From Squalus acanthias (lineage: Eukaryota): a stretch of 64,000 nucleotides of DNA. The position numbers and the translations under genes are program-made. The stretch's first letter is position 1. Each line of letters begins with the position of its first letter. This document shows positions 2,227-57,799 of this stretch, one piece after another. The notes below the pieces were generated by a model. The model did not search any database and was not told the origin of the DNA. It saw nothing but the letters and a program-made list of their open reading frames with translations. The stretch is from NCBI GenBank assembly GCA_030390025.1, contig CM059431.1:148554001-148618000 (forward strand), read 5' to 3'.

Positions 2227-5099
2227 TCAGTATCCCGTCCCCGCCTTCTCTCCGTAACCCTTAACCCCTTTTGCCTGTAGAAATATATCTAATTCCCTCT
2301 TAAATATATTTAATGAGCTGGCGTACACTGCCCTCTGTGGCAATGAGTTCCACAGGTTCACCACCCTCTGAGTGAAGAAATTCCCCCTCATTTCTGTCCT
2401 AAATGGTTTAGCCCTTATCCTTAAATTATGTCCTCTAGTTCTGTTCTCACCCGCCAAGGGAAACATTCCTTCTGCATCTAGTCTGTCTAGACCTGTCAGA
2501 ATTTTATACACTTCTATGAGGTCCCCTCTCAATCTTCTAAACTCCAGTGTGTACATCCCTAAACTACATAGTCTCTCCTCATAGGTCAATCCCGCCATTC
2601 CTGGTATCAGCCTGGTGAATCGCCGCTGCACCCCCTCCATGGCAAGAACATCTTTCCTCAGATGAGGCGACCAAAACTGTACACAGTACTCGAGGTGTGG
2701 TCTCACCAGTGCCCTGTACAGCTGCAGCAAGGTATCCCTGTTCCTGTATTCCAAACCTTTTGCTATGAAGGCCAGCATACCGTTTGCCTTCTTGACCGCC
2801 TGTTGCACCTGCATGCTCGCCTTCAGTGACTGGTGTACAAGAACACCCAGGTCTCTCTGTACTTCCCCCTCTCCCAATTTATTGCCATTTAAATAATAAT
2901 TTGCCCTCCCGTTCCTGCACCCAAGGTGGATAACTTCGCACTTGTCCACATTATAGTGCATCTGCCATTTATCCGCCCAATCACCCAGTCTGTCCAAATC
3001 GCTCTGGAGCTTCCTGGTCTCCTCCTCTGAGCCCACCCCCCCCCCCCTCCTAGTTTAGTGTCGTCTGCAAATTTGGAAATGCTGCATCCGACTCCCTGAT
3101 CCAGGTCATTAATGTAAATTGTGAACAGCTGGGGACCCAGGACAGATCCCTGCGGTACCCCACTTGTTACTGCCTGCCATTCAGAAAATGAGCCGTTTAT
3201 TCCAACTCTCTGTTTTCTATCTGACAGCCAGTTCTCTATCCACGTCAATACTTTCCCCTTTATCCCATGAGCTTCAATTTTCCCTGCTAATCTTTTATGT
3301 GGGACCTTATCGAAGGCCTTTTGGAAGTCCAGGTACACCACATCTACTGGCTCTCCCCCATCTATTTTACCAGTTACTCCCTCAAAAAATTCCAATAGAT
3401 TAGTCAAGCACGATTTACCCTTTGTAAATCCATGTTGACTCTGTCCTATCCTGTCCCCATTTGCTAAGTGCTCCGCTATTTCATCCTTAATGATGGACTC
3501 CAGCATTTTGCCCACAACTGATGTAAGGCTTACAGGTCTGTAATTACCTGCTTTTTCCCTACCCCCCTTTTTGAATAGTGGGGTAACGTTAGCTACCCTC
3601 CAATCCATGGGCACTGTTCCCGAGTCTAATGAATTCTGAAAAATCATACTTAGTGCATCCGCTATCTCTAGGGCCATCTCCTTCAGCACCCTAGGATGCA
3701 TGTTATCAGGCCCTGGGGATTTGTCCGCCTTCAATCCCTTTAGCTTCCTTAACACCATATCCTTAGAGATATTGATTTGCGTCAGTTCCTCCTTTGCAAA
3801 TGTCCCTATTTTTCCCGATATCCCAGGGAGGTTTTTTGTGTCTTCCTTCGTAAAGACTGACCCAAAGTATGCATTTAGTTGGTCTGCCATTTCCTTATTT
3901 CCCGTTATATATTCCCGCGTATCTGACTGCAATGTGCCAACTTTGGTTTTCACCAGTCTTTTCCTCTTGATATACTTATAAAAGCTTTTGGAGTTAGTTT
4001 TTATATTTTCCGCCAGCTTGCTTTCATAAGCTATTTTGCCCCTCTTGATTAAGCCCTTTGTCCTCCTTTGCTCTATCTTAAACTGTTCCCAATCTTCCGC
4101 TCTGGCGCTTTTTTTGGCTACTTTATACGCCCTATCTTTGGATTTTATGCTGTCTCTAATTTCCCATGTTATCCACGGTTGGTTCACCTTTTTAGATTTC
4201 CTTTTATGCCAGATTGGTATAAACAATTTTTGCAATTTTGTCATTCTATCTTTAAATGCTTGCCATTGCTTATCTACCTCCAGTCCACCCAGGAACGTTG
4301 TCCAATCAGACCTACTCAGTTCCCGTCTAATGGCATCATAATTCCCCTTGTTTAAATTCAGGACCTTCGTATCTGAGTCAATTTCTTCGCTCTCCATTTC
4401 GAGTGAGAAATCGATCATGTTATGATCGCTCTGACCCAAGGGTCCCCGTACAACAAGATTACTAATTAGTCCCTTCTCATTGCACAGTACCCAGTCCAAT
4501 ATAGCCTGTTCCCGAGTTGGTTCCTCGACATATTGATCCAGATAACCATCCCTTAAACACTCAAGGAATTCCTCCTCCTCATTATTTTTACTGATTAGGC
4601 TATTCCAATCTATATGTAAGTTAAAGTCACCTATGATGACAGCTGTGCTCTTATTGCACGCTTCTCTAATTTCCCTCGTGATGCCCTCCCCAACCTCTAT
4701 TTTACTATTTGGAGGCCTATATACCACTCCTATTAATGTTTTTCGCCCCTCGCTATTTCTTAGCTCCACCCATATAGATTCTGTATTAACTGAGTTAATA
4801 TCCTTCCTTTCAATTGCATTTATCCCTTCTTTTACCAGCAATGCTACCCCTCCTCCCTTTCTTTTTTGTCGATCCTTCCTAAATACTGAATACCCCTGTA
4901 TGTTAAGCTCCCAGCCCTGCTCACCCTGCAACCATGTTTCCGTAATCCCAATTAGATCATAATTATTAACCTCTATTTCCACAGCTAATTCATCTACCTT
5001 GTTCCTGATGCTTCTCGCATTAAGGTATAAAACCCTCAGGCTTTTTTTATGCTCACATTTTTTATGAATTAGTTTGGCCCTTTGTTTTTTGTTCCTCAC
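2227..5099 (-). CDS. CR1 ORF2p (APE endonuclease + reverse transcriptase), one frameshift at a C12 run (3036-3047)
   Basis: YLNARS, ETW, GDFN, SDH (endonuclease); [28 protein letters not shown] (RT). C-terminal part in ORF 2227-3036. Confidence 0.92.
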
Positions 5100-5173
5100 C
5101 CTTTTACCATTTATTTCTGTCTGCCTTTCACTTTCCTCTATTTCACTGCATAGGTTTCTAGCCCCCTGCCATA

Positions 5174-6079
5174 CTAGTTTAAATGCTCCCGAACTGCTTT
5201 ATCAAAAATTACCCCGAGAACATCAATTCCATCTTTGCACAGGTGTAGACCGTCCCTTTTGTATAGGTCACACCTACCACAAAACTGGTTCCAATTCCTC
5301 AAAAATTTAAAACCCTCCCTCTTACACCAATGCTCAAGCCACGTATTTAGCCTAACTATCCTCTTCTCTGTACTCTTACTCGCACGTGGCACTGGTAGTA
5401 ATCCAGAGATTACTACCTTCGAGGTCCTACTTTTTAGCTTGGCTCCTAACTCCCTAAATTCTACTTGTAGGACCTCTTCCCTTTTTTTAGCTACGTCGTT
5501 GGTACCAACATGTATCACGACAACTGGCTGTTCCCCCTCCCCCTCCAGAATGTTCTGCACCCGCGCCGAGACATCCTTGACCCTTGCACCAGGGAGGCAA
5601 CATACCATCCTGGAGTCTCGGTCGCGACCACAGAAACCCCTATCTATTCCCCTTACAATCGAATCCCCTATTACGATAGCCCTGCCACTCTTTTTCCCTC
5701 CCTTCTTTGCAACAGGGCCAGTCATGGTGCCATGAGCCTGGCTGCTGGTGCCTTCCCCCGATGAGTCATCCCCCCCGACAACAGCACCTAAGGCGGTGAA
5801 CCTGTTGCTAAGGGAGACAACCCCAGGGGATTTTTGCACTACCTTCCTGCCCTTGCTCTGCCTTTTGGTCACCCATGTACTATCTACGCTGGCCTTAACC
5901 TGCGGTGTGACCAACTCACTAAATGTGTTATCCACAACCCTCTCAGAATCGTGGATGCTCCAAAGTGAGTCCATCCGCAGCTCAAGGGCCGTCATGCGGT
6001 CCCACATGAGCTGCAGCTGGACACACTTCCCGCACACATGGTTGTCAGGGACACAGGAAGCGTCCCTGATTTCCCACAT
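5174..6079 (-). CDS. CR1 ORF1p: N-terminal Cys motif/coiled coil plus SGNH/GDSL esterase domain
   Basis: [39 protein letters not shown] esterase blocks; open for 301 aa. Confidence 0.9.
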
Positions 6080-6107
6080 GTTACAGGAGGATATGATAAT
6101 AGATAAA

Positions 6108-6510
6108 TGTTTTTTTATTCATTTTTCTAATGTGGGTGTCGCTAGCAATGCCAGCATTTGTTGCCCATCCGTAATTGCCCTGGAGAAGGTTGTGGTGCGA
6201 CGCCTTATACAACTGAGTGGCTTACTCGGCCATTTCAGAGGAGCAGTTAATAATCAACCACATTGCTGTGAATTTAGAGGCACATTGCGGCCAGGATGGG
6301 TAAGGACGGCAGATTTCCTTCTCTGAAGGATATTAGTGAACCAGCTGTGTTTTTACGACAATCCGGAAGTTTCATGTTCATCATTACTGACACTAAACTT
6401 TTGTTCCAGATTTGTTTAATTAATCGAATTTAAATTGCACAGCTGTTGGGACTTGAACCCAGGATCATTCATCCATGCATCTGGTTTACGAGTCTAGCAA
6501 CATAACCACT
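6108..6510 (-). mobile_element. tRNA-derived SINE with 3' tail shared with the L2/CR1-group LINE
   Basis: B-box-like GGGTTCAAGTCCC on minus (~6448-6460); body homologous to 62400-62850; tail matches LINE 3' end at ~22310-22420. Confidence 0.7.
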
Positions 6511-8855: not shown

Positions 8856-9415
8856 CTTGGATCCATGTTTTGTTATGGAACCTGTAAGTTATGGCCTCCT
8901 GGTCTCACACCATCAGCTTGTAGCTGATTTGGATACAACCATGTCCACCTTGTCCAGACAGAGACAGGTCTCGGCCTCCGTTAATATATGTTGTTTTTAC
9001 CCTCCCTACAATCTTTCTTTGTTCAATACTTAGTAGAGGCCTTGAAGCTGACGACAAAGTTAGCGGTAAGGAAATCCTAATTTGATGAGCATTATCTTGA
9101 CTTTTAATTGTAATGCCTCTGACAGGGTTTTTAACACTATCCTGAATATTTAAAATCGGTTTCTCTATGGAGAATGTGTCGTGGCCTTTATGATTTAAAA
9201 AGTGTCTCACTCTCCTGAGCCACATCAGCCATTTCATGTTGTGCTGCTGTCGATAACGAAGCATGTTTGAGACTCGTTCGTTCACGCACAAAACCGTATC
9301 CCAATATCATGCCACACGTGACATCGGATCCAAGCCATTCTCGGGTTTTCAGGTGATCTTATCAAAAGATCGTGAGGTGTCTGGAGATCTTTGCTTATCT
9401 CCTTCTGCGTGGTTC

Positions 9416-10586
9416 TGTAAGGGGTATCTTGATGGGGTCAGCCTTGGCTTTCTGACAAAGTGAGCGGTTCCAATAGCTCCAACACCCCTCCTTTTACTAG
9501 ACTTTGGGCTTATTTAGGGGTTGTGAACAAAATTGCAGTAAACAGGTTCTGATGAAAGAATTTGAATTTATTAAAGGAAAAAGGTAACGAACTTGAAACA
9601 CACTTATTACTTAAACGCAGATTCGGGTAACACACGGTACAAGCGAGGGAAATGACAATATATCAAACACAACCTTATCCCTCCCAAACTTCCCACTATC
9701 TGGCAAGGTTTTTGGTTTCAGGAGGTCAGGGATAATGTTCACCAACGAATCCTTGACAGGATATTAGAGTCTTTTGTTTATGTGCGAGGTGTCTGATGGT
9801 CACTGAGACAGTCGCTCTGGTTTATTCTTGCGTGCTGGTTTTATGGCCTTCTTCCTCGTGGCTTGTGGTAAGTTTTGCTGGAGCAGGGACAGAGCCGTAT
9901 CCGCGTCGTCAGTCAGTCCGAAAAAGAGAGAAATTATGGCACAGGCTCTCAAATTATACTGTTTCTTTTTCGCGCCCAAAAACCCGTTACTAAAACGAAT
10001 TCCTTTTTGATTGTAAATGAACCTTGCTTAGTCCAATTGTTTAGTTTTTGTCGTTCTTGCCAGTTCCGATGGTTTTTGCTTAGTGTTAATCGTTTTCCGA
10101 TTTAAAAACACAGCCTTATCTACACGTCAACTCTCCACCCTATTGTCCTTCTGTTGGCGGGCTGTTAAATCTGTTCTGTGGAAACCTGGTTGATTGTTTT
10201 TTTGATGGGATAATGGCTATGAAACTGTGTGATCGAAGTTATATTGTCATTGAATCGTTTTTAGATTTCCAGCATCTTGTTTCCCCTGGGGATCCATATT
10301 TGAATGTGTTTGTGAGTTTTGCTTTGTCTCAAACAATTCCCAGACAGCTTGATCTGTTCACTGACCGGCCACGCCCCTCGCAGCTTGTGCCTGTGAAAAA
10401 GATGTCTCTCTCAACAATAAGATTTAAAAAAAAATCAGTTTCCTCAGTTTTTTCTTCCATGATCTATAGGTTTTTACATCAAATCACTTTACTTAGGCCC
10501 CATCGTCCCAAGTTTGTATGAAAAGTCCAAAAATCACTCCCTTTAGGGATCTGTTCGAGTTTCTGGGGAATTTTGCGAAGCCTACA
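9416..10586 (-). repeat. 3' LTR (1171 bp)
   Basis: TGTAAGGGG...GCCTACA on +; direct repeat of 17192-18387; AATAAA on minus at 9567-9572. Confidence 0.95.
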
Positions 10587-10598
10587 TCCCCCACTTTC
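10587..10598 (-). promoter_or_regulatory. Polypurine tract
   Basis: Minus strand GAAAGTGGGGGA directly abuts the TGTA of the 3' LTR. Confidence 0.85.
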
Positions 10599-10869
10599 AT
10601 ACTAACACTGAATTAGTATCATTAACAGGGGAGCAAAATTACCGATCCCCGAAAAGCAACCTTCCCCTGTATTACATAAACTAAAAACCCAAACATTAAT
10701 TCCCCTTTTGAAAGTGGGGTTTCAGGTACATACAGGTAATAATCAATCTTTATTTCACATCCAAGCACGGAGAGGGTCCGACACCCCTGCACAGCTTGGA
10801 AAAAACACATCATACACATCATAAAAATGAAACAACACACGTACAATTTGTTTTATTAAAAGACAAAAT

Positions 10870-13213
10870 TCAAGGTTTGTTCCATCCCCGGCCATAGCCT
10901 TTATTTTGATGCACTTCCCAAGGACCTTCGTGTCTGCAGCGGAGCTCCTCGTCCCTTCCCCTTCACTTTGTACACAGCAGGTAGAGAACTATCCCGAGCT
11001 GGCAGACCACCAAAAGATGGGAAGCCATCCTCATCCAGGACGGCACCTCTATATTCTCGAAAATATCCCGCCAGTTTTGAACTACTATATCCAAAATCTC
11101 TGCCCCTATTTCAAATGTTTTCTGTTCCAGGTTGTAGAAATGTTTTTGTGAAATCTCTGCAGCTTTAAGTAGGATGTTAAGTAGGGGGAATTTTATATCC
11201 AAAGTAAGTCACATACTATTGCAGGTTTGTAATGTTTTCTGTAACAGTGAGGTGAGGAGTGAAGGTTTCAGGAATGGGGACAATCCGTTCCTGGGCAACT
11301 TGAACTTCTGCCTCGGGTTTAAAGCAGAAACTGCTGTCACTTACCGGACACCAGAAGTGTCCATGCTGGTAGTGGGACGCACCTGTGGTGACACAATATG
11401 TCCCACCCCATATATATGCTACCTGTGGGGAAACATGGCCGTGTGCCATCACCTCCATGGTACAATTGATAGGTCGTGCGCCAGCAGCTTTAAACCCGCA
11501 CTGTGGTTTGGAATAGGCGGTCAAGTGCTGGGGACACAGTATTATGTGTGAACCCCGGCTCCGGCACCCGGAGAGGTCAGTACCTGTCATGCCTTCCTCC
11601 CACTTTATGATATAAGGTGGGACCGCTGTAAAACGGATGTGTGCACCCCCTTGAATTACTCCACTGTTCTCCACCCTGTATACCGGTACGGGTCGGGCTG
11701 TCCCACTCATGACTGGCATTCTCACTACTATCCCCATGACAGTGTGATTTGAACGCCCACAATCTATTGGGACAGGGCAGGCTTCAGAGGCTAGACGAAA
11801 TTGGCATGGACTCAGCGAATTACTAAACGGGTTGAGGGCTGTAAGGTGCTTGTTGCTGATCCAGCAGGGGACTAAACCTTGCTTTAAATCCTCCAGGTTG
11901 CGACGGTCCTCGCCCAGTAACCATGCCCCGTACAGCACACACACCTCATTCTGTGCAGCCTGATCCGATGCATTTCTATCCTCCCGTATGAGTGAATTTA
12001 CTGTTTTGGCATGCCTTTCCAATTCTGCAATAATTTCCTTTAAATGAACCGTCAAAGCTTGGTCCTCATGTAGCTCTGAGCCTACCACTGTGTTCCCATC
12101 CTTCAGGATCTTACTTAACTGGGTTTTTCAACCATTTATCTGTGTCTGTAATTCCATGTCATTCAGGCTATTTATTACAGAGGACCCTGTACTATAGGCA
12201 GTGAAGACATCATTCCAGGCTCCCCTTCTTTGTCTACCCGTGCCCATAGGGTTCTCAGGGTGTATTCTGTATAGCTCTACTTTGTCTATATTGGCAAAAT
12301 CAAATTCGTAAAATTTCCTAAACATTTCCTTCAGCAGGGCCTGGTACAGCTGCTCCGTTTCCTTAGGACACCACACAGGTAAGTATACCTCGGTAAGGTT
12401 TAATATTACTGAAGCTACTGCATAGTGTTCCCCCTGGTATAGTACCTTTTCGTTTGGTGCTAGGACTAACCCATTCCCTGGTCCCTTGGTGGTGGTAGGG
12501 CACTTTTCTTCCAGGGTTTTCGGTACCTGGCTCGTGGGTAGGGGCTTTCGGGTGTGTGCCACGAGTTCAGTGGCATTAACTGGGACCTGAATGTGTGGCA
12601 CCACGCACCCATGCAGGCTAGAATCACACCCTATCCCCTCCCCGGCATCTTGCCATTGGCTGGAGAAGATGATGGATTCCCCTATGGGGCAGGCTTCCTA
12701 TGATCCCCACATACAACCATAGACTCCCTGTTCCGACTCCCACCACTTATCCCAACAAACACTAACTTCTCCTTGGGTCCCTGTGATTGTCCGGTGGGTG
12801 TCGTTCCCTAATCTTTCCCAGTCGGCTGTATGGTACCCTGCGTCCCTGCTCAGCTTCCTGAGCCACCACCACCTAGTCAGGGGAATTCGTCCCTTACAGG
12901 TAAGGCACATACGCTTCCCCTCGGTGACACTGACCCTGGTGGCAACGACCTGCATTCTGGGTCATGGGAGGTAGGCCTCCCCGTACGTGAACCCGGGCTG
13001 GGTGGATTATTTAGTAAAGTTGGACCCCAGCCACCCTGGCCACCTCCCCTCGTGGAAGTAGATGGCGAGCTCCACCACTACCCGCTCGCCACCCCCTGCG
13101 GTGACGACTGGTGCTCTCACTCCTGAGCACCCATAGATGTGAGAGTCCTCCACGTCACCTCGGTAGCCGATGCTCACCCCTACCAGGGCGAAGAGGAGCA
13201 GAAACCTTGTCAT
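10870..13213 (-). pseudogene. env: env: signal peptide, Ig-like domain, furin site, F-type fusion ectodomain, TM anchor
   Basis: ORFs 13007-13249, 12698-12955, 12128-12604 and 11216-12088 share one frame, separated by stops; 10963-11202 is frameshifted. MTRFLLLFALVGVSIG; RQRR|GAWNDVFTAYSTGSSVINSL; heptad region; Cys-rich DLSGC..IILCP, YCVTT, FCF; TM-like HLLVVCQLGIVLYLLC. Confidence 0.85.
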
Positions 13214-13225
13214 CCCGATGTCCTT

Positions 13226-13252
13226 TCTGTAGGGGCACACACAAAACATATA
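13226..13252 (-). promoter_or_regulatory. Probable env splice acceptor
   Basis: Minus strand TTTTGTGTGTGCCCCTACAG| lies 13 nt upstream of the env ATG (13213). Confidence 0.6.
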
Positions 13253-13439
13253 TCCATGTCCCAGAAAGGTTCTCCGGCTGGATAATCAATCAAGCCCTTA
13301 AACTTAAAAAAAACTCTACAAACAACGAAACTAATGATAACTCAAAACCACCAAAACTGCAATTACTTAAAAACCCAAATTTATGTTCATTTGCCGCCCG
13401 TCTCCGGGCGGCCAGGTTAAATCATGTTTGGTCTCTGCC

Positions 13440-14374
13440 TTATGCGGCCTCTGGATGGCTTGTACACCTGGGTGTCGTGCGGCCTGTACCGCAGACCCAG
13501 AAGGCCTTCCTCAAATCCGCTGGGGGTATCTTAACATCCCAGCTGCGTCCTGTGCTGCAGCACACTACCCACTTTGGTGTGTTTGCAGCGCCCTCGTTCA
13601 TATCTGTGGGCTCCTCCCAGCCTGAGGCTGCGGGCGGGGGACCCTTCTCTCTCTCTCCTTCCAGTACTACCTCTCCTGTGAAACCCTCACTGTTGGAGGC
13701 TGTAGGCTGGGAATCACCAACTTTAGAACGCTCCCTGCTCTTGGGCGCCCTTCTTCGGATTGCAACCCTCTTTGGGTGGGACCCTCTTAACAGATACACC
13801 TGTGGCCACAGTAGCCTTTGCTGTGGTGTGCGGGGAGACCTTCTTAGGGCTCTGGCCACTGGGGGTGTGCTTGAGCCCCACATAATCGGTGGAGTGACCT
13901 CTCCTGTGAGACAACACACTGTCCCTCCCGCTCCAGCCTGTGCGTCTGCCACAGTTGTGTCTGGCTGCGGATTTCTAACTTGGGGGCAGTCCACCTTTGC
14001 CGGCTGTTCCCTTTTAGGTTTAAACAGTTTGCACTGGTCAATCTCCCACTCGTGAGTTATCTGGGGTTCTAACAGCAGCCTATCTTTCTGGTGCTGGCTC
14101 CCCAGGTTACTGGCTGCTTGCCAGTGATTCTGTTTAAAAATCTGGTCCTCTGCCCTGAAAGGACCTCCGAGGGACTCCCCTCACTCTCTCTACCAGGCCG
14201 GACTTAAAGACGGGATGCTGGGCTTGGACCTGCTTTAAGTCCGGGGGCTAAGCTACCCCCTGTGTGCCTCCCTTGTCCCGGATTGCAGCTACCGGACCTG
14301 CATTATAGGGATCCCATAACTCTCCTTCACTGGCCCCCTGCTTGGCCAACTTGTCGGCCTTTTGGTTACCCTCC
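13440..14374 (-). pseudogene. pol: pol remnant: RNase H C-terminus, integrase-flanking segments and a Pro/Arg-rich tail; RT and IN cores absent
   Basis: My translation: GNQKADKLAKQGA (14332-14370), DLKQVQAQHP, then HWQAASNLGSQHQK...HEWEIDQCKLF running into ORF 13440-13994. No YxDD or DDE motifs seen. Confidence 0.75.
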
Positions 14375-17116
14375 CACGTGGTATGGAGGGATCCTAAATC
14401 TATGTCCAAAGGTTTGGATATGGCCCCAGCCTGCTTGTTCCCTGTGATTCACATTAAACTGTACGGGACCCCGCTAGACCTGAGTGAATTGGTCAGGTCT
14501 GCCGAATGGACCACCGTGCTGGCGGCTCCGGTGTCCACCAAACATCTCCCCTGCACTTTCTCCACCCCCTTCTTCACATCGTATCCCAGGGGAACACAGG
14601 TAGACAGGCTGCGCTGGTTCCAGTCATAGGTCTGCATTAGGGTGGGGGCTGATGGGATTAATGCACCAGTAGCTACCTTCCCTGGGCCACCAAACAGGAC
14701 TCTGATGGCCGCTACTATTGTGTCCAGTGTGGGGGAAGAGGTCGATGCCTCTACTTTTGGGGCAAAAGCTGGGGAATTTTTTGTCAGCATATCCTTCCAG
14801 GGATTTCTACAGTCCTTTCTCCAGTGCCAACTCTTCCCGCACCCGAAGCAGTTACGCTTCATATCTGAAGGTTTACCACCTTCCTGGTCCCACTCCTTCT
14901 TATCCTGAGTGGGCTTTATCTCATACACCTTCCCTTTCAGTGGGGTGTCTTCAGCTCCCCTACCGTTCCGGTAGGCTAGGGTCAGTTGCCAGACCACTGC
15001 CTCCTCGGTGACCCGGGGATCTCTTGGGTCAAACCAAAGCACAGCCATGGCTTTGACTCGTGGCAAGCTGTTTGCCACTTGGTTACGGAGCCAGTGGGCT
15101 AGCTCGTCCCTGTTCAGGTTAGCCCTGTCGAGAGCCCCATTACAGGCAACCATGTACACCGGCCACAGCCTGTCTGCGAAAGCCTGTGGGATCACCCCTG
15201 CGAGCTGCACTGTTTTTCTCCACCCGGGAGAAAGGACTTCCCTCATTCATTCCCATGGCCTCTAAAACTTCCTCCCTGAGGGAAGCATACCCGTTCTGTC
15301 CTCTCTTGCTCTCATTAGAGAGTGACTGGTACAATTTCCCATCAATGAGAACAGGAGCTATTTTGCCATTTCGGCATCGTCACAATCGTTAATGGCTGCT
15401 GATTGTTCCACCTCCATGAAGTGAACTGCGGGGTCTTCCTTTTGGGTAAGTTTACTCTTGTGGTTTACCATAGCCCTAAGCTCTTGTGTACCGTGGGGAG
15501 CCAAGAATTGACTTTCAAGGGGTCGCTGACCTCCACCACCGGCGGGCGAGCCGAATTTTTGCTGTCGTGCTGGGCACATTGGCCCTGGCTCCGACTTCTC
15601 CTGCATCGGTTCGCCCCCCTCTCCCTGCTGCCAGACCGAGTCAAAACTCGGCGCCACAGGTGCTGGTGTGCACTCCCTGTCAGCCTCACAGATTGTCTGC
15701 ACCTTCTGCTGCCTAAACAAGCTTCTCCTTGGCGCCACAGGTGGTGGTCGAACAGTCTCCCCCTGCTCTACCAGGTCTGCCTGGGCCGCACCCGGGCTTA
15801 TCAGGCACAGCATGCCTTTTGTCTTGATCAGAGCAAGGTTCAGACTCTCAATCTGCTTCTGAGAGGGGCCGTGGTCCCCTACCTCAAACTCCCTTTTACT
15901 GGCTATTCTATAGGCTGCCTGAACATCGTTTAACTTCTCTGTGAGTTCCCTTAATTGCTTGGCAAGGCGGGTGTTCTGTTCCCGCAATGCCAGTTCACTA
16001 CTTTTGGCCCCGGTGGACTGATACTGGAGGTATCCCTTACTGGCACGGTGTTCCTCCAGCATCTGTGACTGTTCCTGATCTTTTGAGCCGAGCTCTGCTA
16101 ACAACCTATCTCCTGCTATAGCTCTGGCACGGGACAGTTGGCTTTCTTTCTTTAGCTCTTCTGTGAGAGCCTGAATACACTTCCCATAAGCTGCATTTGT
16201 TTCTGGGAGCAGACCAACCATATGGCTTTATCCACAGACTTATTGGCCCAGAAATTGATCTCGCTCTGTTCCCGCGGGGGTAAGCCTTCCCCGCGTTGTC
16301 TCACCTCGCTTGTGCTTTTTCAGATCCAGCTCGCACGAACTTGATGTTCCAGACATCAGCTGTGCTGGGCTTGCGTATCCCAGCGGCGTAGTGAATTCGT
16401 GCGAGCTGTGGGATCACGTGACTCAGATGGAGTCAATGGCAGCACACCATCTTCCATTCATAAGTTTCACAGACCTGCTCTGAAATCTATGAATCTTACA
16501 ACCCCCCAAAATAACAGCTAAACCTCAATTAAATTTAAAAAAAAACCATCACATTAATAAAATAAGTATAGTTAATTAAATTAACCATTTTAAATAAAAA
16601 ATTAAATTTTTGAAAAAATTTAAAATCTTTTAAAAAGTTATAAAAATAAACTTACCTGTCTTTAAAGTCTCTAAAAAAGATATACCTGTAAAAAAAAATT
16701 CAAAAAAATACTTAATTCACTACTTACCTTCTTAAAAGCGGGTCTTACTCCTCCTTTTTACATTTCCAAAATCTTCCCTACTTACCTGCGCGTCCAAAGC
16801 ATGAAGTGCACAGCGTGCGCGCAGCCTGTAGCGCGCACGCGATGCACCCAGGACCCGCCCCCTTTTCAGAAGAGCAATTGCCGGTTTTCAGCGCATGCGC
16901 AGGGCATGCAGAAAACCGGCAATTGGAGTGGAAATACGCGAGAGTACGCAGTGCGTACTCTCACTTCCCGGGATGAATTTTCGGCCCATTGTATTCCTTG
17001 CTCTCAGTCCATGCAGCTGCAGCGTCCATGGGACGTTCAGCATGCAACAGCCTGAGGACCCATTTCTGGGTGATATTTACTTTTTTATATACATAGGATG
17101 ACATCCTCTCTTCCAT
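14375..17116 (-). pseudogene. gag: gag-pro: coiled-coil N-region, capsid-like region, CCHC knuckle, PSAP motif, aspartic protease N-half; broken by MITE, stops and frameshifts
   Basis: ORFs 16961-17188, 15358-16221, 15140-15334, 14449-15246. CFGCGKSWHWRKDC (14809-14850), PSAP (14644-14655), CLVDTGA (DTG 14527-14535). Confidence 0.85.
16245..16987. mobile_element. MITE (PIF/Harbinger-like, 3-bp TSD) inserted in gag
   Basis: Imperfect TIRs GGCCCAGAAATT / AATTTTCGGCCC; ATT on both flanks; homologous to 56764-57476. Confidence 0.8.
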
Positions 17117-17170
17117 TTTTGTTCTCTCCTCAAAACCAGCATTTACTGCTTCACAACCCTTTCGCCAAAC

Positions 17171-17187
17171 TCCTGCCACGGTCGCCA
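17171..17187 (-). promoter_or_regulatory. Primer-binding site, tRNA-Arg(UCG)-type
   Basis: Minus strand TGGCGACCGTGGCAGGA, 4 nt after the 5' LTR. Complements the vertebrate tRNA-Arg-TCG 3' end as I recall it (...TCCTGCCGCGGTCG-CCA) with one mismatch. Confidence 0.8.
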
Positions 17188-17191
17188 TTTA

Positions 17192-18387
17192 TGTAAGGGG
17201 TATCTTGATGGGGTCAGCCTTCGCTTTCTGACACAGTGAGCGGTTCGACTCGCTCCAACACCCCTCCGGTTCCTTGACTTTGGGCTTATTTAGGGATTGT
17301 GAACAAAATTGCAGTAAACAGGTTCTGATGAAAGAATTTTACTTTATTAAAGGAATAAGGTAACACACTTGAAACACACTTATTACTGCAGCACAGATTC
17401 GGGGAACACACGGTACAAGCGAGGGAAATGACAATATATCAAACAAAACCTTATCCCTCCCAAAGATCCCACTATCTGGCTAGGTTTTAGGTTTCAGGAG
17501 ATCAGGGATAATGCTCACCAACGAATCCTTGACAGGATATTAGAGTCTTTTGTTTAAAAGGACTCCGTAAGGCCCTTGTTGCTGCGAGGTGTCTGATGGT
17601 CACTGAGGCAGTCACTCTGGTATCTTCTTGTGTGCTTGTCTTCTGGCCTTCTTCCTCGTGGCTTGAGGTAATTTTTGCTGGAGCAGGGAGAGAGCTGTGT
17701 CCACGTCGTCATTCAGTCCGAAAAAGAGAGAAATTATGGCACAGAATCTCAAATTATACTGTTTCTTTTTTGCGCCCAAAAACCCCTTACTAAAACGAAT
17801 TCCTTTTTGATTGTAAATAAACCTTGCTTAGTCCAATTGTCTAGTTTTTGGCGGGCTTGCCAGTTCCGATGGTTTTTGCTTAGTGTTAATCGTTTGGCCC
17901 ATTAAAACACAGCCTTACTTACGCGCCAAATCTCCAACCTATTGTCCTTCTGTTGGCGGGCTTTTAAATCTGTTCTGAGGAAACCTGGTTGATTGTTTTT
18001 TTCGATAGGATAATGGGTATGAAACTGTGTGATCGAAGTTATATTGTCATTGAATCGTTTTTAGATTTCCAGCATCTTGTTTGCCCCTGGGGATCCAAAT
18101 TTGAATGTGTTTGTGAGTTTTGCTTTGACTCAAACAATTCCCAGGCAGCTTGATCTGTTCACTGACCGGCCAAGCCCCTCGCAGCTTGTGTCTGTGAAAA
18201 AAATGTCTCTCCCAACAATCAGAATTTAAAAAAAATCATTTTCCTCAGGTTTTTCTTCCATGATCTATAGGTTTTTACATCAAATCACTTCACTTAGGCC
18301 CCGTCATCTGAAGTTTGTATGAAAAGTCCAAAACTCACTCCCTTTAGGGCTCTGTTCGAGTTTCTGGGGGATTTTGCGAAGCCTACA
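17192..18387 (-). repeat. 5' LTR (1196 bp)
   Basis: Same termini as the 3' LTR; many substitutions and one ~25-bp indel relative to it; followed on minus by the PBS. Confidence 0.95.
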
Positions 18388-18529
18388 GTTCCGATATCTC
18401 GGGTAGGGGCCAGGCTATAAAATTCAGTTTTCTTATTGTTCAGTATAGGCAATGTCATAAACATCTCCAACAGAAAGTCTATCAATTTACGACACTTCCC
18501 TGACTTTCACAATTATTTACATTAATTCG

Positions 18530-27100: not shown

Positions 27101-29720
27101 TGGGAGGTAACAATCCTGCCTGGCGATTGTGCGCGGTGTCCGTTCATACGTTGTCTCCGTATCTGCATGGTCTTGCCGATGTACCATGCCGCTTTGCATT
27201 CTTTCCTGCAAAGTATGAGGTAGACAATGTTGTCCGAGTCACATGAGTATGTACCATGTACCTGGTGGGTAGTGTCCTCACGTTTGATGATGGTATCTGT
27301 GTTGATGATCTGGTATGTCTTGCAGAGGTTGCCGTAACAGGGTTGTGTGATGTCGTGGTCGCTGTTCTCTTGACAGCTGGGTAATTTGCTGCGAACGGTG
27401 GTACATTTGAGGTTAGGCGGCTGCTTGAAGGCGAGTAATGGAGGCGTGGGGATGACCGTAGCAAGGTGTTCATCGTCATCGATGACATATTGAAGGCTGC
27501 GAAGAAAATGGCGTAGTTTCTCCACTCCGGGGAAGTACTGGACGACGTAGGGTACTCTTTTGGTTGTGTCCCATGTTCGTCTTTTGAGGAGGTCTATGCG
27601 GTTTTTCGCTGTGGCCCGTCGGAACTGTCGATCGAAAGGAACTAGAGAGAGTACAACGCCAACATGTAACCGTATAGGTCAAGGGTGGGAACAAAAAGCC
27701 CAGGGAAACCTGGATGTCAAGGGATATACAAGAATGGATTAGGAAAAAAGGAAGGCTTTTGGCAGACACAAAGGACTAAAACAGTGGAAGCCATAGAGGA
27801 GTATAGAAAGTGCAGGTGGGTACCTAAAAAAGAAATTAGGAGAGCGAAGAGGGGGCATGAAAAAACATTGGCAGGCAAAATAAAGAAAAATCCCAAGGTG
27901 TTTTATAAGTATATTATGGGCAAAAGGATAACCAGGGAAAGAGTACGGCCCATTAGGGAACAAAGTGGCAATCTGTGTGTAGAGCCAGAAGATGTCGGTG
28001 AGGATTTAAATAAATATTTTGTATCTCTGTTCACTGTGGAGAAGGACGATGTAGGCATAGAAATCAAGCAGGGGTATTTTGATAAACTTGAACAAATTAG
28101 TATAGAAAGGGAGGAGGTACTAGCGGTTTTGGCGGGCTTAAAAGTGGATAAATGCCCAGGCCCAGACGAGAGTTATCCCAGGCTGCTGTGTGAGGCAAGG
28201 GTGGACATTGCAGGGGCTCTGACACAAATTTTCAGCACCTCTCTGGCCACAGGAGAGGTGCCAGAGGACTGGAGAACAGTTAAAATAGTACCATTATTCA
28301 AGAAGGGTAGTAGGGATAAACCAGGGAATTACAGGCCAGTGAGCCTAACATCAGTGATAGGGAAAATATTGGAAAAAATTCTGATGGCAAACGAATTAGT
28401 CTCCAATTGGAGAGGCAAGGATTAATCAAGGATAGTCAGCATGGCTTTGTCAGGGGGAGATCACGTCTGACCAATTTGATTGAATTTCTCGAGGTGATGA
28501 CTAGATGTGCGGATGAGGGAAGTGCAGTTGATGTGATCTACATGGACTTTAGTAAAGCTTTTGACAAAGTCCCGCATGGGAGACTGATCAATAAGGTAAG
28601 AGCCCATGGGTTCCAGGGCAATTAGGCACATTGGATCTAACATTGGCTTCGTAGCAGGAGGCAGAGGGTGATGGTCGAAGGTTGTTTTTGTGGTTGGAAT
28701 CCTGTGTCCAGTGCTGTACCGCAGTGATCGGTGCTGGGTCCTTTGCCGTTTGTAGTGTACATTAATGATTTAGATATGAATGCAGGAGGCATGATCAGTA
28801 AGTTATCTGATGACACGAAAATTGGGAGAGTGGTAAATAGCGAGGTGGGAAGCATCAGGCTACAGGACGATATAGACGGTTTGGTCAGATGAGCAGAACA
28901 TTGGCAAATGGAACTTAACACAGAAAAGTGTGAGGTGATGCATTTTGGGAGGACTGTCAAGGCAAGGGAATAAACTATGAATGGTAGCACTCTAGGAAGG
29001 ACAGAGGATCGGAGACAACTTGATATGCATGTACATAGATCCCTGTCGGCAGCAGAATAGGTAGATAAGTTGGTTAAGAAGGCATATGGGATACTTGCAT
29101 TCATTAGCCGAGGCATAGAATATAAGAGCAGGGAGGTTATGATGGAGCTGTACATAATGCAAGTTTGGTCTCAGCTGGAAAACTGTGTGCAGTTCTGGTC
29201 GACACACTATAAGAAGGATGTGATTGCATTAGAGAGGGTGCAGAGGAGATTCACCAGGATGTTACCTGGGCTGGAAAGTTTCAGCTATGAAGAGGGACTG
29301 GAAAGGCTGGGGTTGTTTTCGGTAGAGCAGAGGTGGCTGAGGGTGGACCTGATTGAGGTGTACAAAATTATGAGCGGCATAGATAGGGTAGATAGAAAGG
29401 AACATTTCCCCTTATTAGAGGGTTCAATAACCAGGGGGAATAGTTTCAATTTAAGTGGCAGGAGGTGTAGAGGGGATATGAGGTAAAACAAATTCACCCA
29501 GAGAGTGTTTGGAATTTGGAACTCACTGCCTGAACGTTTGGTAGATGCAGGAACCCTCACAACAATCATGAACCATTTAGACGAGCATTTGAAACGCCAT
29601 AGCATACAAATCTACGGACCATATGCTGGAAAATGGGATTAGAGTAGATAGGGCAAGATGGCCGGCGCAGACACGTTGGGCCGAAGGGCATCTTTCTGCG
29701 CTGCATAACACTACGACAAT
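24130..29720 (+). mobile_element. Full-length but decayed CR1 (second subfamily), interrupted by a Penelope element
   Basis: 5' UTR with a duplicated ~60-bp motif (24139, 24450); ORF1 esterase (IVIGDTIVRG, HIGTND); ORF2 pieces ([19 protein letters not shown]); many stops. Confidence 0.9.
26555..27635 (-). mobile_element. 5'-truncated Penelope-like element (GIY-YIG endonuclease) with hammerhead-bearing terminal repeat
   Basis: NIVYLILC..AWYIGKT..QRMNGHR, PVGEHF, EQKLI, GLNRDLG. Minus strand CTGAAGA-AGGAGCAGCGCTCC-GAAAGCTC at ~26635-26664. Confidence 0.9.
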
Positions 29721-31217
29721 ATTTTAAAGAGATAGTCTCTCCCTCAGGGACCCCATTTAAAGAGGGAGACTCACCATCAGGAACCCCTTTTAAAGAGAAT
29801 GTTTCAGCATCAGGGACTCATTTTAAAGAGAGAGTCTCACCATTAGGGATCCCATTTAAACAGGGATTGTCACCATCAGGGACCCGTTTTAATGATGGTG
29901 TTTCACCATCAGGGACCCCTTTTAAAGAGGGAATCACACCATCAGGGACCCTTTTAAAGAGAGAGACTGGCCATCAAGGACCCCTTTTAAAGAGGGAGTA
30001 TACCCATCAGGGATCACTTTTCGTGAGAGAGTCTCTCCACCAGGGACCACGTTTAAAGAGGGAGTCTCACCATCGGGGATCCCTTTTAAAGACGGAGTCT
30101 CACCATCACGGATCCCTTTTACAGAGGGAGTTTCAGCATCAGGGAACGCTTTTAAAGAGATAGTTTCTCCATCAGGGAGCCGCCCTTTTAAAGAGTGAGT
30201 CTCACCATCAGGGAACGCTTTTAAAGAGGGAGTCTCACCATCAGGCACACCTATTGAAGAGTGAGTCTCACCATCAGGGACCCTTGTAAAGAGGGAACCT
30301 TACCATCAGGGACGTCTTTTAAAGAGAGATTCTTTCTATCAGGGACCCCTTTTAAAGAGAGTTTCTCCCAATTAGGGAACCCTTTTAAAAAGTGTGTTTC
30401 AGCATCAGGGACACTTTTTAAAGAGGGAATCTCCCCATGAGGGAAGCCTTTTAAAGCGGCTCACCATCAGGGACCCATTTTAAAGAAGGTGTTTCAGCAT
30501 CAGGGATTCCAATTAAAGAGGTTGTCTCACCATCAGGGATCCATTTTAAAGATTGTGTCTCACCATAAGGGAGCATTTTTAAAGAGGGAGTCTCACCATC
30601 AGGGACCCATTTTAAAGAGGGAGTCTCACCATCAGGGACCCTTTTAAAGAGGGAGGCTTACTATCAGGAACACCTTTTAAAGAGAGTTTTCTATCAGGGA
30701 CCAATTTTAAAGATGTAGTCTCATCCTCGGGGACCCATTATAAAGAGAGAGTCTTTCTATCAGGGACACCATTTTATGAGATATTCTCCCCACCAGGGAC
30801 CCCTTTTAAAGAGGGAGTCACATCATCAGGGACCCCTTTTAAGGAGGGTGTTTCAGCATCAGGGAAACTTTTTAAATAGAGTTTCTCCAAAAGTGTACCC
30901 TTTTAAAGACAGAGTCTCACCATCAGAGAGTATTTTAAAGAGACAGTTTTTCTATCAAGTTCCCTTTTTATAGTGGGAGTCTTTTTTATCAGGGACCCCT
31001 TTTAAAGAGAATCTTTCTATCAGGGACATCATTTAAAGAGAGAGTCTCACCATCAGGGACCCCTTTTAAAGAGGGAGTGTCTCCATCAGTGACGCCTTTT
31101 AAAGAGGTTGTTTCAGCATCAGCGTCTCCAATTAAAGAGGGAGTCTCAGCATCAGGGACCCCTTTTAAAGAGAGAGTCTCACCTTCAGGGAACCATTTCA
31201 ACGAGCGTCTCACCGTC

Positions 31218-31437
31218 TGTGACATGAATCTTGTCATTCATGTATGAAATAATACTAGCCGGCCTTCTGGTGGCGCTGTCCAGGGAGAGTATAAATACTA
31301 GGGCATGGGCCCAGCTTGCTTAGGACATTCCTTTACAGGAACCAGTAAAGGATGCAACTAGACCTCCATGTTGAAAAACAGTTGATTAAAGCTTTGTTTA
31401 ACGCTTAGACCAAGTGCCTAGTAGTTTTCATACATCA
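31218..31437 (+). mobile_element. ~220-bp solo-LTR-like insert in the satellite, copy 1
   Basis: TGT...CA ends, TATAAATA, ATTAAA, inner TGTATGAAA/TTTCATACA inverted repeat; GTC on both flanks. Confidence 0.6.
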
Positions 31438-31800
31438 GTCAGTGTCCCCTTTTAAAGAGGTTGTCTCACCATAAGGGACCACATGTAAAGAAGGCATCTC
31501 ATCATCAAGGACCCTTTTTAAAGAGAGTGTCTCACCATCAGGGACACTTTTAAAGAGGGACTATCTCCATGAGGGGCCCGTTTTAAAGAGGGAGTCTACC
31601 CATCAGGTACCCCTTTTAATGAGAGAGTCTCTCTATCAGGGACCACTTTTAAAGAGGGAGCCTCACTGTCAGTGATCCCTTTTTCAGAGGGAGTTACAGA
31701 ATCAGGGACCGCTTTTAAAGAGATAGTCTCACCATCAGGGACCCCTTTTAAAGAGAGAGTCTCACCTTCAGGGAACCATTTCAACGAGCGTCTCACCGTC

Positions 31801-32020
31801 TGTGACATGAATCTTGTCATTCATGTATGAAATAATACTAGCCGGCCTTCTGGTGGCGCTGTCCAGGGAGAGTATAATTACTAGGGCATGGGCCCAGATT
31901 GCTTAGGACATTCCTTTACAGGAACCAGGAAAGGATGCAACTAGACCTCCATGTTGAAAAACAGTTGATTAAAGCTTTGTTTAACGCTTAGACCAAGTGC
32001 CGAGTAGTTTTCATACATCA
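31801..32020 (+). mobile_element. Solo-LTR-like insert, copy 2
   Basis: Near-identical to copy 1, same flanks. Confidence 0.6.
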
Positions 32021-33845
32021 GTCAGTGTCCCCTTTTAAAGAGGGTGTCTCACCATAAGGGACCACATGTAAAGAAGGCATCTCATCATCAAGGACCCTTT
32101 TTAAAGAGAGTGTCTCACCATCAGGGACACTTTTAAAGAGGGACTATCTCCATGAGGGGCCCGTTTTAAAGAGGGAGTATACCCATCAGGTACCCCTTTT
32201 AATGAGAGAGTCTCTCTATCAGGGACCACTTTTAAAGAGGGAGCCTCACTGTCAGTGATCCCTTTTTCAGAGGGAGTTACAGAATCAGGGACCGCTTTTA
32301 AAGAGATAGTCTCACCATCAGGGACCGCTTTTAAAGAGGTTGTCTCAACATCAGAGACACCTTTTAAACAGGGGATCTTAACATCAGGGACCCCTTTTAA
32401 AGAGGGAGTTTCACCATTAGGGACCACTTTTAAAGAGAGAGTCTTTCTATCAGGGACTTCTTTTAAGGAGCGAGTCTCACACTCGTGGACACATTTTAAC
32501 GGGAGAGTCTTTCTATCAGGGACCCCTTTTAAAGAGAATGTCTCCCCATTAGGGACCCCTGTTAAAGAGGCTCATCATCAGGAAACCCTTTTAAAGAGAG
32601 TGTTTCAGCATCAGGGACACTTTTTAAAGGGGGAGACTTTCTCTCAGGGATCCATTTCAAAGAGAGAGTCTCCCATTTGGGACACCTTTTAAAGGGGTTC
32701 ACCATCAGGGACCCCTTTTAAAGAGGGTCTTTTAGCATCAGGCACCGATTTTAAAGAGAGAGTCTCACCATCAGGTATCACTTTTAAAGAGGGAGTCTCA
32801 CCATCAGCGACTCCTTTTAAAGAGGGTGATTCAGCATCAGGGACCGCTTTTTAAGAGAGGCTCTCCATCAGGGACACCTTTTAAAGAGTGACTCGCCATG
32901 GGACCCATTTTAAAGAGAGTGTCTCACCATCAGAAACACCTTTGAAAGAGAGAATCCGACCAACAGGGGCCCATTTTTAAGAGGGAATCTCCCCATCAGG
33001 GACCCCTTTTAAAGAGGCTAACCATCAGGGACCCCTTTGAAAACGGTTGTTTCAGCATCAGGGACTCTTTTTAAAGAGGGAGTCTTTCTATCAGAGATCC
33101 CTTTTAAAGAGAGAGTCTCACCATCAGGGATTCCTTTTAAAGAGGGAGTCTCACCATCAGGGATCCTTTTTAAAGAATGTGTCTTAGCATCAGGGATCGC
33201 TTTTAAAGAGACAGTCTCATCATAAGGGACCCGGTTTTAAAGAGGGAGTCTCACCATCAGCGACCGCTTTTAAAGACGGAGTCTCACCAACAGGGATACC
33301 TTTTAAAGAGGGAGTCTCTCCCTCGGGGAAACAATTTAAAGATAGAGTCTTTCTATCAGGTACACCTTTTAATGAGAGAGACTCTCCACCAGGGACACTT
33401 TTAAAGAGGGAGTCTCACCATCAGGGACCACTTTTAAAGAGGGAGTCACATCATCAGGGACACCTTTTAAGGAGGGTGTTTCAGCATCAGGGACACTTTT
33501 TAAATAGAGTTTCTCCATCAGCGTACCCTTTTAAAGACAGAGTCTCACCATCAGGGAGTATTTTAAAGAGACAGTTTTTCTATCAAGTTCCCTTTTTATA
33601 GTGGGAGTCTTTTTTATCAGGGACCCCTTTTAAAGAGAATCTTTCTATCAGGGACATCATTTAAAGAGAGAGTCTCACCATCAGGGACCACTTTTAAAGA
33701 GGGAGTGTCTCCATCAGTGACGCCTTTTAAAGAGGGTGTTTCAGCATCAGCGACTCCAATTAAAGAGGGAGTCTCAGCATCAGGGACCCCTTTTGAAGAG
33801 GGAGTCTCACCTTCAGGGAACCATTTCAACGAGCGTCTCACCGTC

Positions 33846-34063
33846 TGTGACATGAATCTTGTCATTCATGTATGAAATAATACTAGCCGGCCTTCTGGTG
33901 GCGCTGTCCAGGGAGAGTATAAATACTAGGGCATGGGCCCAGCTTGCTTAGGACATTCCTTTACAGGAACCAGTAAAGGATGCAACTAGACCTCCATGTT
34001 GAAAACAGTTGATTAAAGCTTTGTTATAGCTTAGACCAAGTGCCTAGTAGTTTTCATACATCA
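33846..34063 (+). mobile_element. Solo-LTR-like insert, copy 3
   Basis: Near-identical to copy 1, same flanks. Confidence 0.6.
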
Positions 34064-37000: not shown

Positions 37001-38937
37001 CAAGGACCCCTTTTAAAGAGGGGATCTCACCATCAGGAATCCATTTTAAAGAGGGCATTTCAGCATCAGGGACCCCTTTTAAAGAGAGAGTATCACCATC
37101 AGTGGCCACTTTTAAAGAGGGATAATACCCATCAGGCACCCCTTTTAAAGTGAGTGTCTCTCCACCAGGGACCACTTTTAAAGAGAGACTCTCACCATCA
37201 GGATCCGCTTTTAAAGAGGGTGTCTCACCATCAGGGACCCCTTTTAAAGAAGGAGTCTCACTCTCAGGGACGACTTTTAAAGAGAGAGTCTTTCCATCAG
37301 CGACCCCTTTTAAAGAGAGAGTCTCCCCAATAGGGAGAACTTTTATAGGGGCTCACCAAAAGGGAACCCTTTTAAAAAGGCTGTTTCAGCATCAGGGACA
37401 CACTTTAAAGAGGGATACTTTCTATCACGGACCCCTTTTAATAAGAGAATCTCCCCATTTGGGACCCCTTTTAAAGAGGCTCATCATCAGGGACCCCGTT
37501 TAAAGAGGCTGTTTCAGCATCAGGGACTCCTACGGAAGAGAGAGTCTCACCATCAGGGACCACTTTTAAAGGGAGAATCTCACCATCAGGGACCACTTGT
37601 AAAGAGAGAATCTCACCATCAGGGACCACTTGTAAAGAGAGAATCTCACCATCGGGGACCCATTTGAGAAGGAGTCTCACCATCAGGGACCCCTTTTAAA
37701 GAGAGAGTCTCACCATCAGGGACCCATTTTAAAGAGGGAGTGTCTCAATCAGGGATCCATTTAAAGAGGGAGAATACACGTCAGGGAACCCTTTTAAAAA
37801 ACGGAGCCTCATAATCAGGGACCCCTTTTAAAGAGAGAGTCTCATCATTAGGGATCCGTTTTACAGATGGAGTTTCAGCATCAGGGCCTGCTTTTAAAGA
37901 GAGCGCCACTCCATCAGGGGCCCCATTTAAAGAGAGAGTCTCATAATCATGGACCGCTTTTAAAAAGGGTGTCGCCCCATCAGGGGCCCCTTTTAAATAG
38001 GGAATCTTACCAACAGGGACATCTTTTAAAGAGGGGGTCTCACCATCAGGGACCACAATTAAAGAGTGAGTCTCACTATCAGGGACCCCTTTAAAATAGG
38101 GCATCTTACCATCAGGGACCGCTTTTAAAGAGAGAGTCTTTCAGTCAGGGACCCCTTTTAAAGAGAGAGTATCCCCATTAGGGAACCCCTTTAAATAGGC
38201 TCACCATCAGGGACCCCTTTTAAAGAGGGTATTTCAGCATCAGGGACTCCTATTAATGAGGGAGTCTCACCATCAGGGACTCATTTTAAACAGAAAGTCT
38301 CACCATCAGGGACCACTTTTAATGAGGGAGTTTCACCAACAGGGACCCATTTTAAAGAGGGAGATTCAGTATCAGGGACCGCTATTAAAGAAATAGTCTC
38401 ACCATCAGGGACCCCTTTTAAAAAGGGTGTATCACCATCAGGGGTCCAATTTAAAGAGGGAGTCTCATCATCAGGGATCCCTTTTAAAGAGAGAGTCTCC
38501 CCAAATGGTACCCCTTTTAAAATAGAGTCTTTCTATCAGCTACCCCTTTTAAAGAGAGAGTCTCTCCACCAGGGACCCCTTTTAAAGAGGGAGCCTCACA
38601 ATCGGGGACCCCTTTTAAAGAGGGCGATTCCGCATCACGGACCCTTTTTAAAGAGTGAGTCTTACCTTCTGGGATCCCTTTTAAAGAGTGAGCATCACCA
38701 TCAGGCAGCCCTTTTAAAGAGGGATTCTTTCTACAATGGAGTACACTTAAAGAGAGACTTACCATCAGCGATCACTTTTAAAGAGGGTGTCTTTCTATCA
38801 GGGAGCCCTTTTAATGAGTGAGTCACCAACAGGGATCCCTTTTAAAGATACTCACACTCAGGAATCCTTTTAAAGAGGGAGTGTCACTATCAGAGACCCT
38901 TTTAAAGAAGGAATCATTCTATTGCTCCCCTTTTCAT

Positions 38938-56745: not shown

Positions 56746-56763
56746 CACAAACATACTCCTAAT

Positions 56764-57476: not shown

Positions 57477-57799
57477 ATTATCCTCCTCCCTCCTTCCCAC
57501 AGGTCCTCTCTGCCTGGATTTCGTAGCATGCATTGTGGTACTCCCGACCTCGCTGTTGGCCCGTCCCGCACCTTACCTGGGCCCCGACCCCAAAGCTGGT
57601 CCACGCTGCGCATCTCTTGGGACTTGACCTCGCTGCTGTGCTCTTCCTGGCTTTTGGGTCCCTGCCTCGGACATGAATGATGTTTTGTCTCACAAGATCA
57701 AATTAGCACTGATATTCTGGTGAAGTTTAGCCGGGGGGAGGTTAGTGGAGCCCCATCAGGTTTCTGTATTTGTGCCTGTATTTGTATTAGTATTCCTGT

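Follow-up and report, generated by a model that had tools for sequence, protein, structure and literature searches.

The window analysed here is a 64,000-nt stretch of the Squalus acanthias genome (contig CM059431.1, positions 148,554,001 to 148,618,000); coordinates count from its first letter. Its minus strand carries an endogenous retrovirus (ERV), a provirus of 8,972 bp at 9416-18387 that encloses a remnant of the pol gene. The remnant consists of short pieces of protease, RNase H and integrase that meet at three junctions and lead into an orphan open reading frame (ORF). At the contig level, this shortened pol recurs in further copies that have diverged from the one described here: junction 1 is bridged and the junction 2 interval is covered. 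The parts of the remnant are as follows.

14377-14553, minus strand: N-terminal half of the protease with the DTG motif and a stop at 14449-14451 (alignment to P0013)
14371-14385, minus strand: junction 1, protease to RNase H end, in frame, ~700 codons gone (P0013 alignment)
14157-14373, minus strand: final RNase H helix and the linker from RNase H to integrase, with a stop at 14250 and a frame break near 14180
14127-14157, minus strand: interval of junction 2, where the linker meets the integrase post-core helix; ~295 codons gone, comprising zinc finger and catalytic core
14020-14135, minus strand: integrase post-core helix, junction 3 and last integrase residues (weak profile match and the loose end of a contig from run X8, below)
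14036-14048, minus strand: junction 3, ~50 codons of the SH3-like end gone
13440-14019, minus strand: ORF running ~190 codons beyond the integrase end, no relative found

An earlier sequence-only reading had quoted several peptides from this region, and all are present where it placed them on the minus strand. Relatives were gathered by searching a query made of the gag end, protease and RNase H against 1.84 billion representatives, which gave 11 matches. The nearest full Pol, P0013 from bullfrog, has 1,218 residues and comprises protease, reverse transcriptase (RT), tether, RNase H, zinc finger, integrase core and SH3-like end. Window positions 14541-14386 correspond to P0013 residues 2-53 (46% identity, E 2e-9), and 14376-14218, in the same frame, to residues 753-807 (42%, E 1e-5). 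In neither case did any of 300 shuffles equal the alignment score. The alignment bears out the proposal that the protease breaks off in mid-domain and continues, in frame, as the final RNase H helix. Between protease and env, no match to RT, tether or rve was found, in agreement with the earlier statement that the RT and integrase cores are missing.

The RNase H ending was also rightly read as the retroviral second-RNase-H type: the nearest Pols have a tether plus RNase H. Tether and second RNase H are present in P0013 and deleted from the window element. Pfam RNase_H is matched at positions 122-140 of 141 (E 0.13). The RNase H end and linker resemble three undeleted pieces (P0015, 48%; P0016, 66%; P0018, 42%), and the likeness extends to a GPF motif near 14160. 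The linker proposed earlier as an integrase piece holds up at 42-66% identity; junction 2 and the post-core helix proposed with it are weaker. On a profile built from the four closest integrase ends, the 33-residue post-core piece scores 3.8 bits, which 7 of 1000 shuffles reach, over a profile region picked post hoc; its pairwise scores are equalled by 53-251 of 1000 shuffles. A contig from run X8 departs from the window at 14038 and continues in frame like a conserved integrase end, as read by eye. Junction 3 is placed by this departure together with the weak post-core alignment.

With P0013 as reference, Pol has kept ~171 of 1,218 residues, and ~1,050 residues (~3.1 kb) are gone, with them RT, tether, the RNase H core, the integrase core and SH3. 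The earlier estimate of about 1 kb of remaining pol was too generous: only ~530 nt (14020-14553) aligns to known Pol, and the other 590 nt has no relatives. The single stop it reported is the one in the protease; the second stop, at 14250, and the frame break near 14180 had been overlooked. All three joints preserve the reading frame, and the frame break lies within the linker, at no joint. Three in-frame joints would arise by chance once in 27 cases, a figure calculated post hoc. We also note P0012, a protein of a sister family, in which early protease is joined directly to the RNase H end ~25 residues earlier. It departs after the same linker motif and may reflect either a separate loss of sequence from pol or splicing in the gene model.

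The tail beyond the integrase end gave no match in domain and sequence searches. Its run of 196 open codons was reached in 18 of 20000 simulated sequences in a fixed frame and in 297 in any of six frames. A 37-residue stretch of the tail resembles the integrase E-motif region of one of 120 Pols (score 65, against 63 for the best of 300 shuffles). We judge this likeness to be chance, with a profile score of -8.8 bits. The tail holds a 21-nt pure-purine tract at 13642-13662 (minus strand), which could be an internal polypurine tract (PPT) or a simple repeat. On the opposite strand a 316-codon ORF (13105-14055, plus strand) overlaps the tail and is possibly a by-product of the coding frame.

Whether the deleted form multiplied was assessed from public sequencing runs. 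Twenty of 22 listed runs (8 studies) contain part of the window stretch, at most 35% of its words. Contigs of four of the 22 (X1, X8, X9 and X10; organisms A-D; four studies) were compared with 12900-15600 at a likeness of at least 80%. In all four, 30/30 bins of this stretch, which includes the pol remnant, were covered. In X1, 2,773 contigs matched; 138 matched only partly and 1% continue unlike the window. Summed X1 depth was 5,653-27,114 (median 13,784), and the eight longest listed contigs had a median depth of 17, a hundreds-fold difference. Junction 1 is crossed by one X1 contig (record 4, 14257-14426), with 114 and 41 letters on either side, 15 differences in 170 and no gap, which is 91% identity to the window. 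At position 14144, in the junction 2 interval, 18 X1 contigs give a depth of 8,806, and the other runs have 8, 8 and 3 contigs. Record 11 of X10 (14107-14368) and record 30 of X9 (14111-14256) cover this interval. None of the six listed X1 loose ends falls at a junction. Because a diverged contig bridges junction 1, coverage is unbroken in all four runs and X1 depth is very high, we conclude that the deleted form multiplied.

Divergence from the window is 4.6% for seven high-depth X8 and X9 contigs and 11.7% for eight long X1 contigs. Half the distance between the long terminal repeats (LTRs) of the window provirus is 4.0%, and the closeness of 4.6% to this value suggests that a single template gave rise to many copies around the time of insertion. 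In 32 of 40 listed variant rows the window departs from at least 99% of X1 depth, which marks most of its changes as private; at 22 of the 40 sites the window's letter occurs in no X1 contig. Undeleted relatives appear at low depth, as the X8 loose end at 14038 and as X10 record 12, which ends at 14371 with 29 unfitted letters. P0015 and P0018 are further undeleted relatives. Metagenome scans gave no match, and the one viral match (L001) covers 27 residues of a phage protein and is put down to chance.

The provirus that carries this remnant has the following outline, including target site duplications (TSDs) and a primer binding site (PBS).

17192-18387, minus strand: 5' LTR, TG...CA (LTR comparison)
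9416-10586, minus strand: 3' LTR, TG...CA (LTR comparison)
9412-9415, plus strand: TSD GTTC, left copy
18388-18391, plus strand: TSD GTTC, right copy
17170-17187, minus strand: PBS, 4 nt past the 5' LTR
10587-10598, minus strand: PPT touching the 3' LTR

We take the PBS to be of the tRNA-Arg type. The LTRs differ at 88 of 1170 aligned sites, a Kimura two-parameter distance of 0.079 (7.9%). At yearly per-site substitution rates of 2.2e-9 to 2.2e-10, this dates the insertion to 18-180 million years ago. Both rates are quoted in PMC4422223, and PMC10587355 gives a measured shark rate of 7e-10 per generation. No second copy of the provirus interior was found in the 64-kb window. A 77% match at 56760-57465 was considered as a second provirus and rejected, being the second copy of a miniature inverted-repeat transposable element (MITE) described below.

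We consider it very likely that the window holds an old, decayed copy of a high-copy, non-autonomous, pol-deleted ERV family that was mobilised in trans. The TSD, the TG...CA ends, the PBS and the PPT indicate that an integrase acted on this integrase-less provirus. RT and integrase must have been borrowed: the element encodes neither, yet its TSD is clean and its deletions recur in many siblings. In three steps the founder would have shed ~3.1 kb of its pol gene, probably through template jumps during reverse transcription. Its RNA would have kept the packaging and priming signals and, by the likeliest route, been co-packaged with Pol from an intact relative. The enzymes of that relative may then have reverse-transcribed and integrated it, in a burst as old as the window insertion. 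The short pol pieces may have survived as cis signals or to keep the frame open, as in mouse IAP 1Δ1. An env splice acceptor commonly lies in 3' pol. Candidate roles for the in-frame remnant are cis-acting translation (as in IAP 1Δ1), such a splice acceptor and a function of the tail. After insertion, the window copy would have decayed by ~4%, gaining stops, small indels and a MITE.

Several points weigh against this reading. The evidence for replication is at the contig level. Of the earlier proposal of a non-autonomous, trans-mobilised lineage that still supplied Gag and Env, the multiplication of the deleted form stands, and the supply of working Gag and Env is conjecture. No named full-length cartilaginous-fish Pol is among the 120 matches listed, many of which are unnamed. 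The contig comparison spans 12900-15600, without LTRs and flanks, and DNA duplication could also amplify such a stretch. Of the 3638 pieces, 274 loose ends and 414 variant rows, detailed records cover 32, 24 and 40, respectively, and summed contig depth is no copy number, so that it is read as 'hundreds' only. The pieces over junction 2 satisfy the 31-letter rule only if the joint lies towards the upper end of its interval. X1 depth at junction 3 is 7,769, and none of the listed pieces bridges that joint. The post-core match is weak and was seen neither by a blind search of 120 Pols nor by a broad profile.

That last weakness bears on an alternative anatomy in which only junction 1 marks a deletion and filler of unrelated origin follows the linker, on the pattern of RecKoRV or ETn with their swapped central segment. 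The weak or absent post-core matches and the 190-codon tail without any match fit such a structure. The profile, however, puts the piece at the expected helix (the 7 in 1000 shuffles given above), and the X8 contig joins at 14038 from an in-frame integrase-end motif. We regard this alternative as unlikely; it would alter the anatomy and leave the trans-mobilised mechanism as it is. It is very unlikely that one deleted provirus was multiplied as DNA, by segmental or tandem duplication or as a passenger of some larger mobile unit, with neither RNA nor helper. Shared junctions and high depth would fit any amplification that followed the deletions, and the compared stretch excludes flanks and LTRs. 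But a clean TSD of its own flanks the window copy, and its interior does not recur within 64 kb. The distances, ~4.6% for the high-depth contigs (close to half the LTR distance) and 11.7% for the long X1 contigs, fit independent decay from one insertion-time template.

The deletions could instead post-date insertion at this locus, with orthologs as the bridging contigs and with the high depth contributed by intact copies that match the sequence on each side of a joint. Undeleted relatives do exist (the X8 loose end at 14038 and X10 record 12), bin depth alone cannot tell the forms apart, and the loose ends listed are 24 of 274. Yet an intact majority should give many supported loose ends at the joints, where the six listed for X1 show none and only 1% of X1 contigs continue unlike the window. 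The bridging contig is 9% different, and the 22 of 40 listed sites at which no X1 contig has the window's letter point the same way. Three private in-frame deletions, all within pol, would have to be a coincidence, with the frames alone accounting for the post hoc 1 in 27. We find this explanation extremely improbable.

A more specific version of the trans-mobilised family, which we hold to be doubtful, is a satellite that kept its structural genes. Open gag and an F-type env headed by an immunoglobulin-like (Ig-like) stretch would have been retained and only Pol borrowed. Reinfection would have spread it through several shark-type species until it reached hundreds of copies. The joints would have been held in frame since translation of the mini-pol and tail acts in cis or yields an accessory protein. 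If true, this would be a pol-less, env-keeping superspreader, the reverse of the usual route of env loss. The satellite form would then possibly have arisen more than once, given that P0012 joins protease to RNase H in a similar way, at another point.

The genes on either side of the remnant, and the element nested in one of them, are as follows.

14641-17188, minus strand: gag, with coiled-coil N half, capsid-like region and zinc knuckle (P0009 and P0011 alignments)
14809-14850, minus strand: zinc knuckle CX2CX4HX4C (sequence; zf-CCHC in P0009-P0011)
16245-16987, no strand: 743-bp element with terminal inverted repeats and ATT/ATT flanks, nested in 5' gag and foreign to the provirus
10963-13213, minus strand: env, with signal peptide, weak Ig-like stretch, RQRR site, F-type body and transmembrane end
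12224-12235, minus strand: RQRR site in env

The sequence-only reading had held that gag, env and all cis signals are retained. They are present in full extent, with LTRs, PBS and PPT, but both genes are broken in this copy. Gag has relatives in P0009 (42%, E 6e-138) and P0011 (37%, E 2e-93), and is disrupted by the nested element, a stop at 15360 and frame breaks. P0009 residues 2-56 stop at 16991 and residues 58-76 resume at 16241, bracketing the insertion. In env, stops occur in frame at five places and the frame breaks once. Small indels set the window copy apart from contigs of other copies (near 13493, 14179, 14588, 15213 and 15343), and on this basis the frame breaks look like decay after insertion. 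An ATG overlapping the PBS (17170-17188, minus strand) is in frame with gag; the next ATG lies at 17116, ~55 nt downstream. The overlapping ATG in the gag frame suggests a very short leader, and P0011 begins likewise, aligning from 17188.

The nested element belongs to a ~740-bp MITE with copies at 16245-16987 and 56760-57480 that are 77% alike. The terminal inverted repeats of both are of the GGCCCAGAAATT type, and their flanks are 3-bp ATT/AAT. The element is presumably Harbinger-like.

Relatives of Env, 51-66% identical, occur in sawshark and skate. The window's own Env gave no match to Pfam or PDB, and a fold prediction from four sequences was unusable (pLDDT, the predicted local distance difference test, 30). 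The 65%-identical relative P0004 provides a lead: it falls with Fusion_gly and Baculo_F clusters (0.92, 201/256 features, TM 0.58). Through this relative Env looks F-type, as a lead and not as an alignment. The Ig-like stretch at its front (12698-12961, minus strand) reaches E 0.057 with Pfam Ig_3, below the cut-off, and is kept in skate P0006 and P0007. Ig-like text after pol in P0021 was considered as kin of this stretch and fails to align (E 0.84). Three host proteins, P0005, P0008 and P0016 (Niban-like, cadherin-related and forkhead), open with Env or RNase H segments that belong to this group of retroviruses; these starts are probably gene-model read-ins from adjacent proviruses.

Elsewhere in the window, a 33-bp repeat forms long arrays with higher-order units at 29660-42500 and 60733-61852, with 26-, 32- and 61-bp arrays nearby. 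Another repeat occurs in three diverged copies (62-80% alike) at 2296-6118, 39095-41525 and 51830-54258. The ORF at 5174-6118 is presumably a CR1/L2-type LINE ORF1, which it resembles.

The window element is an unplaced basal retrovirus. Among 120 Pols, its protease piece is closest to the frog and coelacanth proteins P0013, P0020, P0021 and P0022 (scores 118, 112, 99 and 92; next 59), which are also among the best matches to the RNase H end. They are unclassified Pols, NYNRIN-like in source labels, and are full-length, unlike the window element. Since the element has no RT, these Pols served as its proxy in an RT tree. This was a quick tree (87/120 rows, support from the Shimodaira-Hasegawa-like approximate likelihood ratio test, SH-aLRT, only, careful search unfinished), with no foamy, SnRV, CmiERV or FLERV references. 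The nearest Pols join class-I-like retroviruses (SH-aLRT 99), a label taken from Pfam accessions, and stand apart from a 25-row clade with P0040. P0040 shares a 9-residue motif and its host species with Loki-Lro. We therefore rejected the lokiretroviruses as the family, by proxy and on the quick tree, the nearest Pols lying outside the clade that holds P0040. Ty3/Gypsy (Metaviridae) was rejected as well: the best matches are dual-RNase-H Pols, and Gypsy-like rows score far lower.

Lokiretroviruses have an Env with an RXKR-type site that is related to paramyxovirus and pneumovirus F, and were found in 0 of 6 chondrichthyan genomes (Wang and Han, PMC7947760). The window element is like them in its putatively F-type Env with such a site, and its nearest Pols have a dual RNase H. 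It is unlike the lokiretroviruses described there in the extra N-terminal part of its Env (~240 residues). The lineage thus appears to combine an F-type Env with a non-lokiretrovirus Pol. Foamy-like fish ERVs, as described in PMC5210030, lack a Cys-His box in Gag and have GGGTG at the PPT/LTR border, whereas the window Gag has CX2CX4HX4C and its border reads GGGGGA, then TG. The 4-bp TSD is shared with them and is not diagnostic. ERV4, in the account of PMC4299795, has a 5-bp TSD and no Gag zinc finger, against a 4-bp TSD and a zinc knuckle here.

No published account of the family was found in the open-licence literature; Repbase and Dfam lay outside this search. If our reading is correct, the family adds cartilaginous fish to the hosts of defective helper-dependent retroviruses, which are documented mostly in mammals and birds, with an old lineage of high copy number. 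Surveys based on RT would probably miss such an RT-less family. The pol pieces that outlasted three deletions are candidate cis signals in a basal lineage. Should gag and env prove to be selected in the deleted lineage, it would offer a natural test of how envelope-bearing defectives spread.

Helper-dependent retroviruses are a kind already known, established by EAV-HP, IAP 1Δ1, bovine D-type elements, ETn and RecKoRV. Chicken EAV-HP has gag and env domains with no pol domain, needs a virus in trans and, like the window family, has known relatives with intact pol (PMC3747184). In the same source it is related to Alpharetrovirus, young and present in 10-15 copies per genome; the window family is a basal retrovirus with an F-type Env, old, apparently in hundreds of copies and with three pol remnants. 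Mouse IAP 1Δ1 is non-autonomous, needs proteins in trans and outruns its helper, and its fusion protein is cis-acting (PMC6466679). Its internal deletion likewise leaves an open frame. That source describes a single 1.9-kb deletion taking out part of gag and pol and most IAPs as lacking env, whereas the window family has gag and env in full extent and three deletions, all in pol. For bovine ERVK[2-1-LTR] D-type elements, ETn/MusD and RecKoRV/KoRV, the parallel is that trans-complemented defective morphs dominate new insertions (PMC10924933). As described there, their centre is replaced by a piece of another retroelement and D-types have no intact ORFs; in the window family the centre was deleted stepwise.

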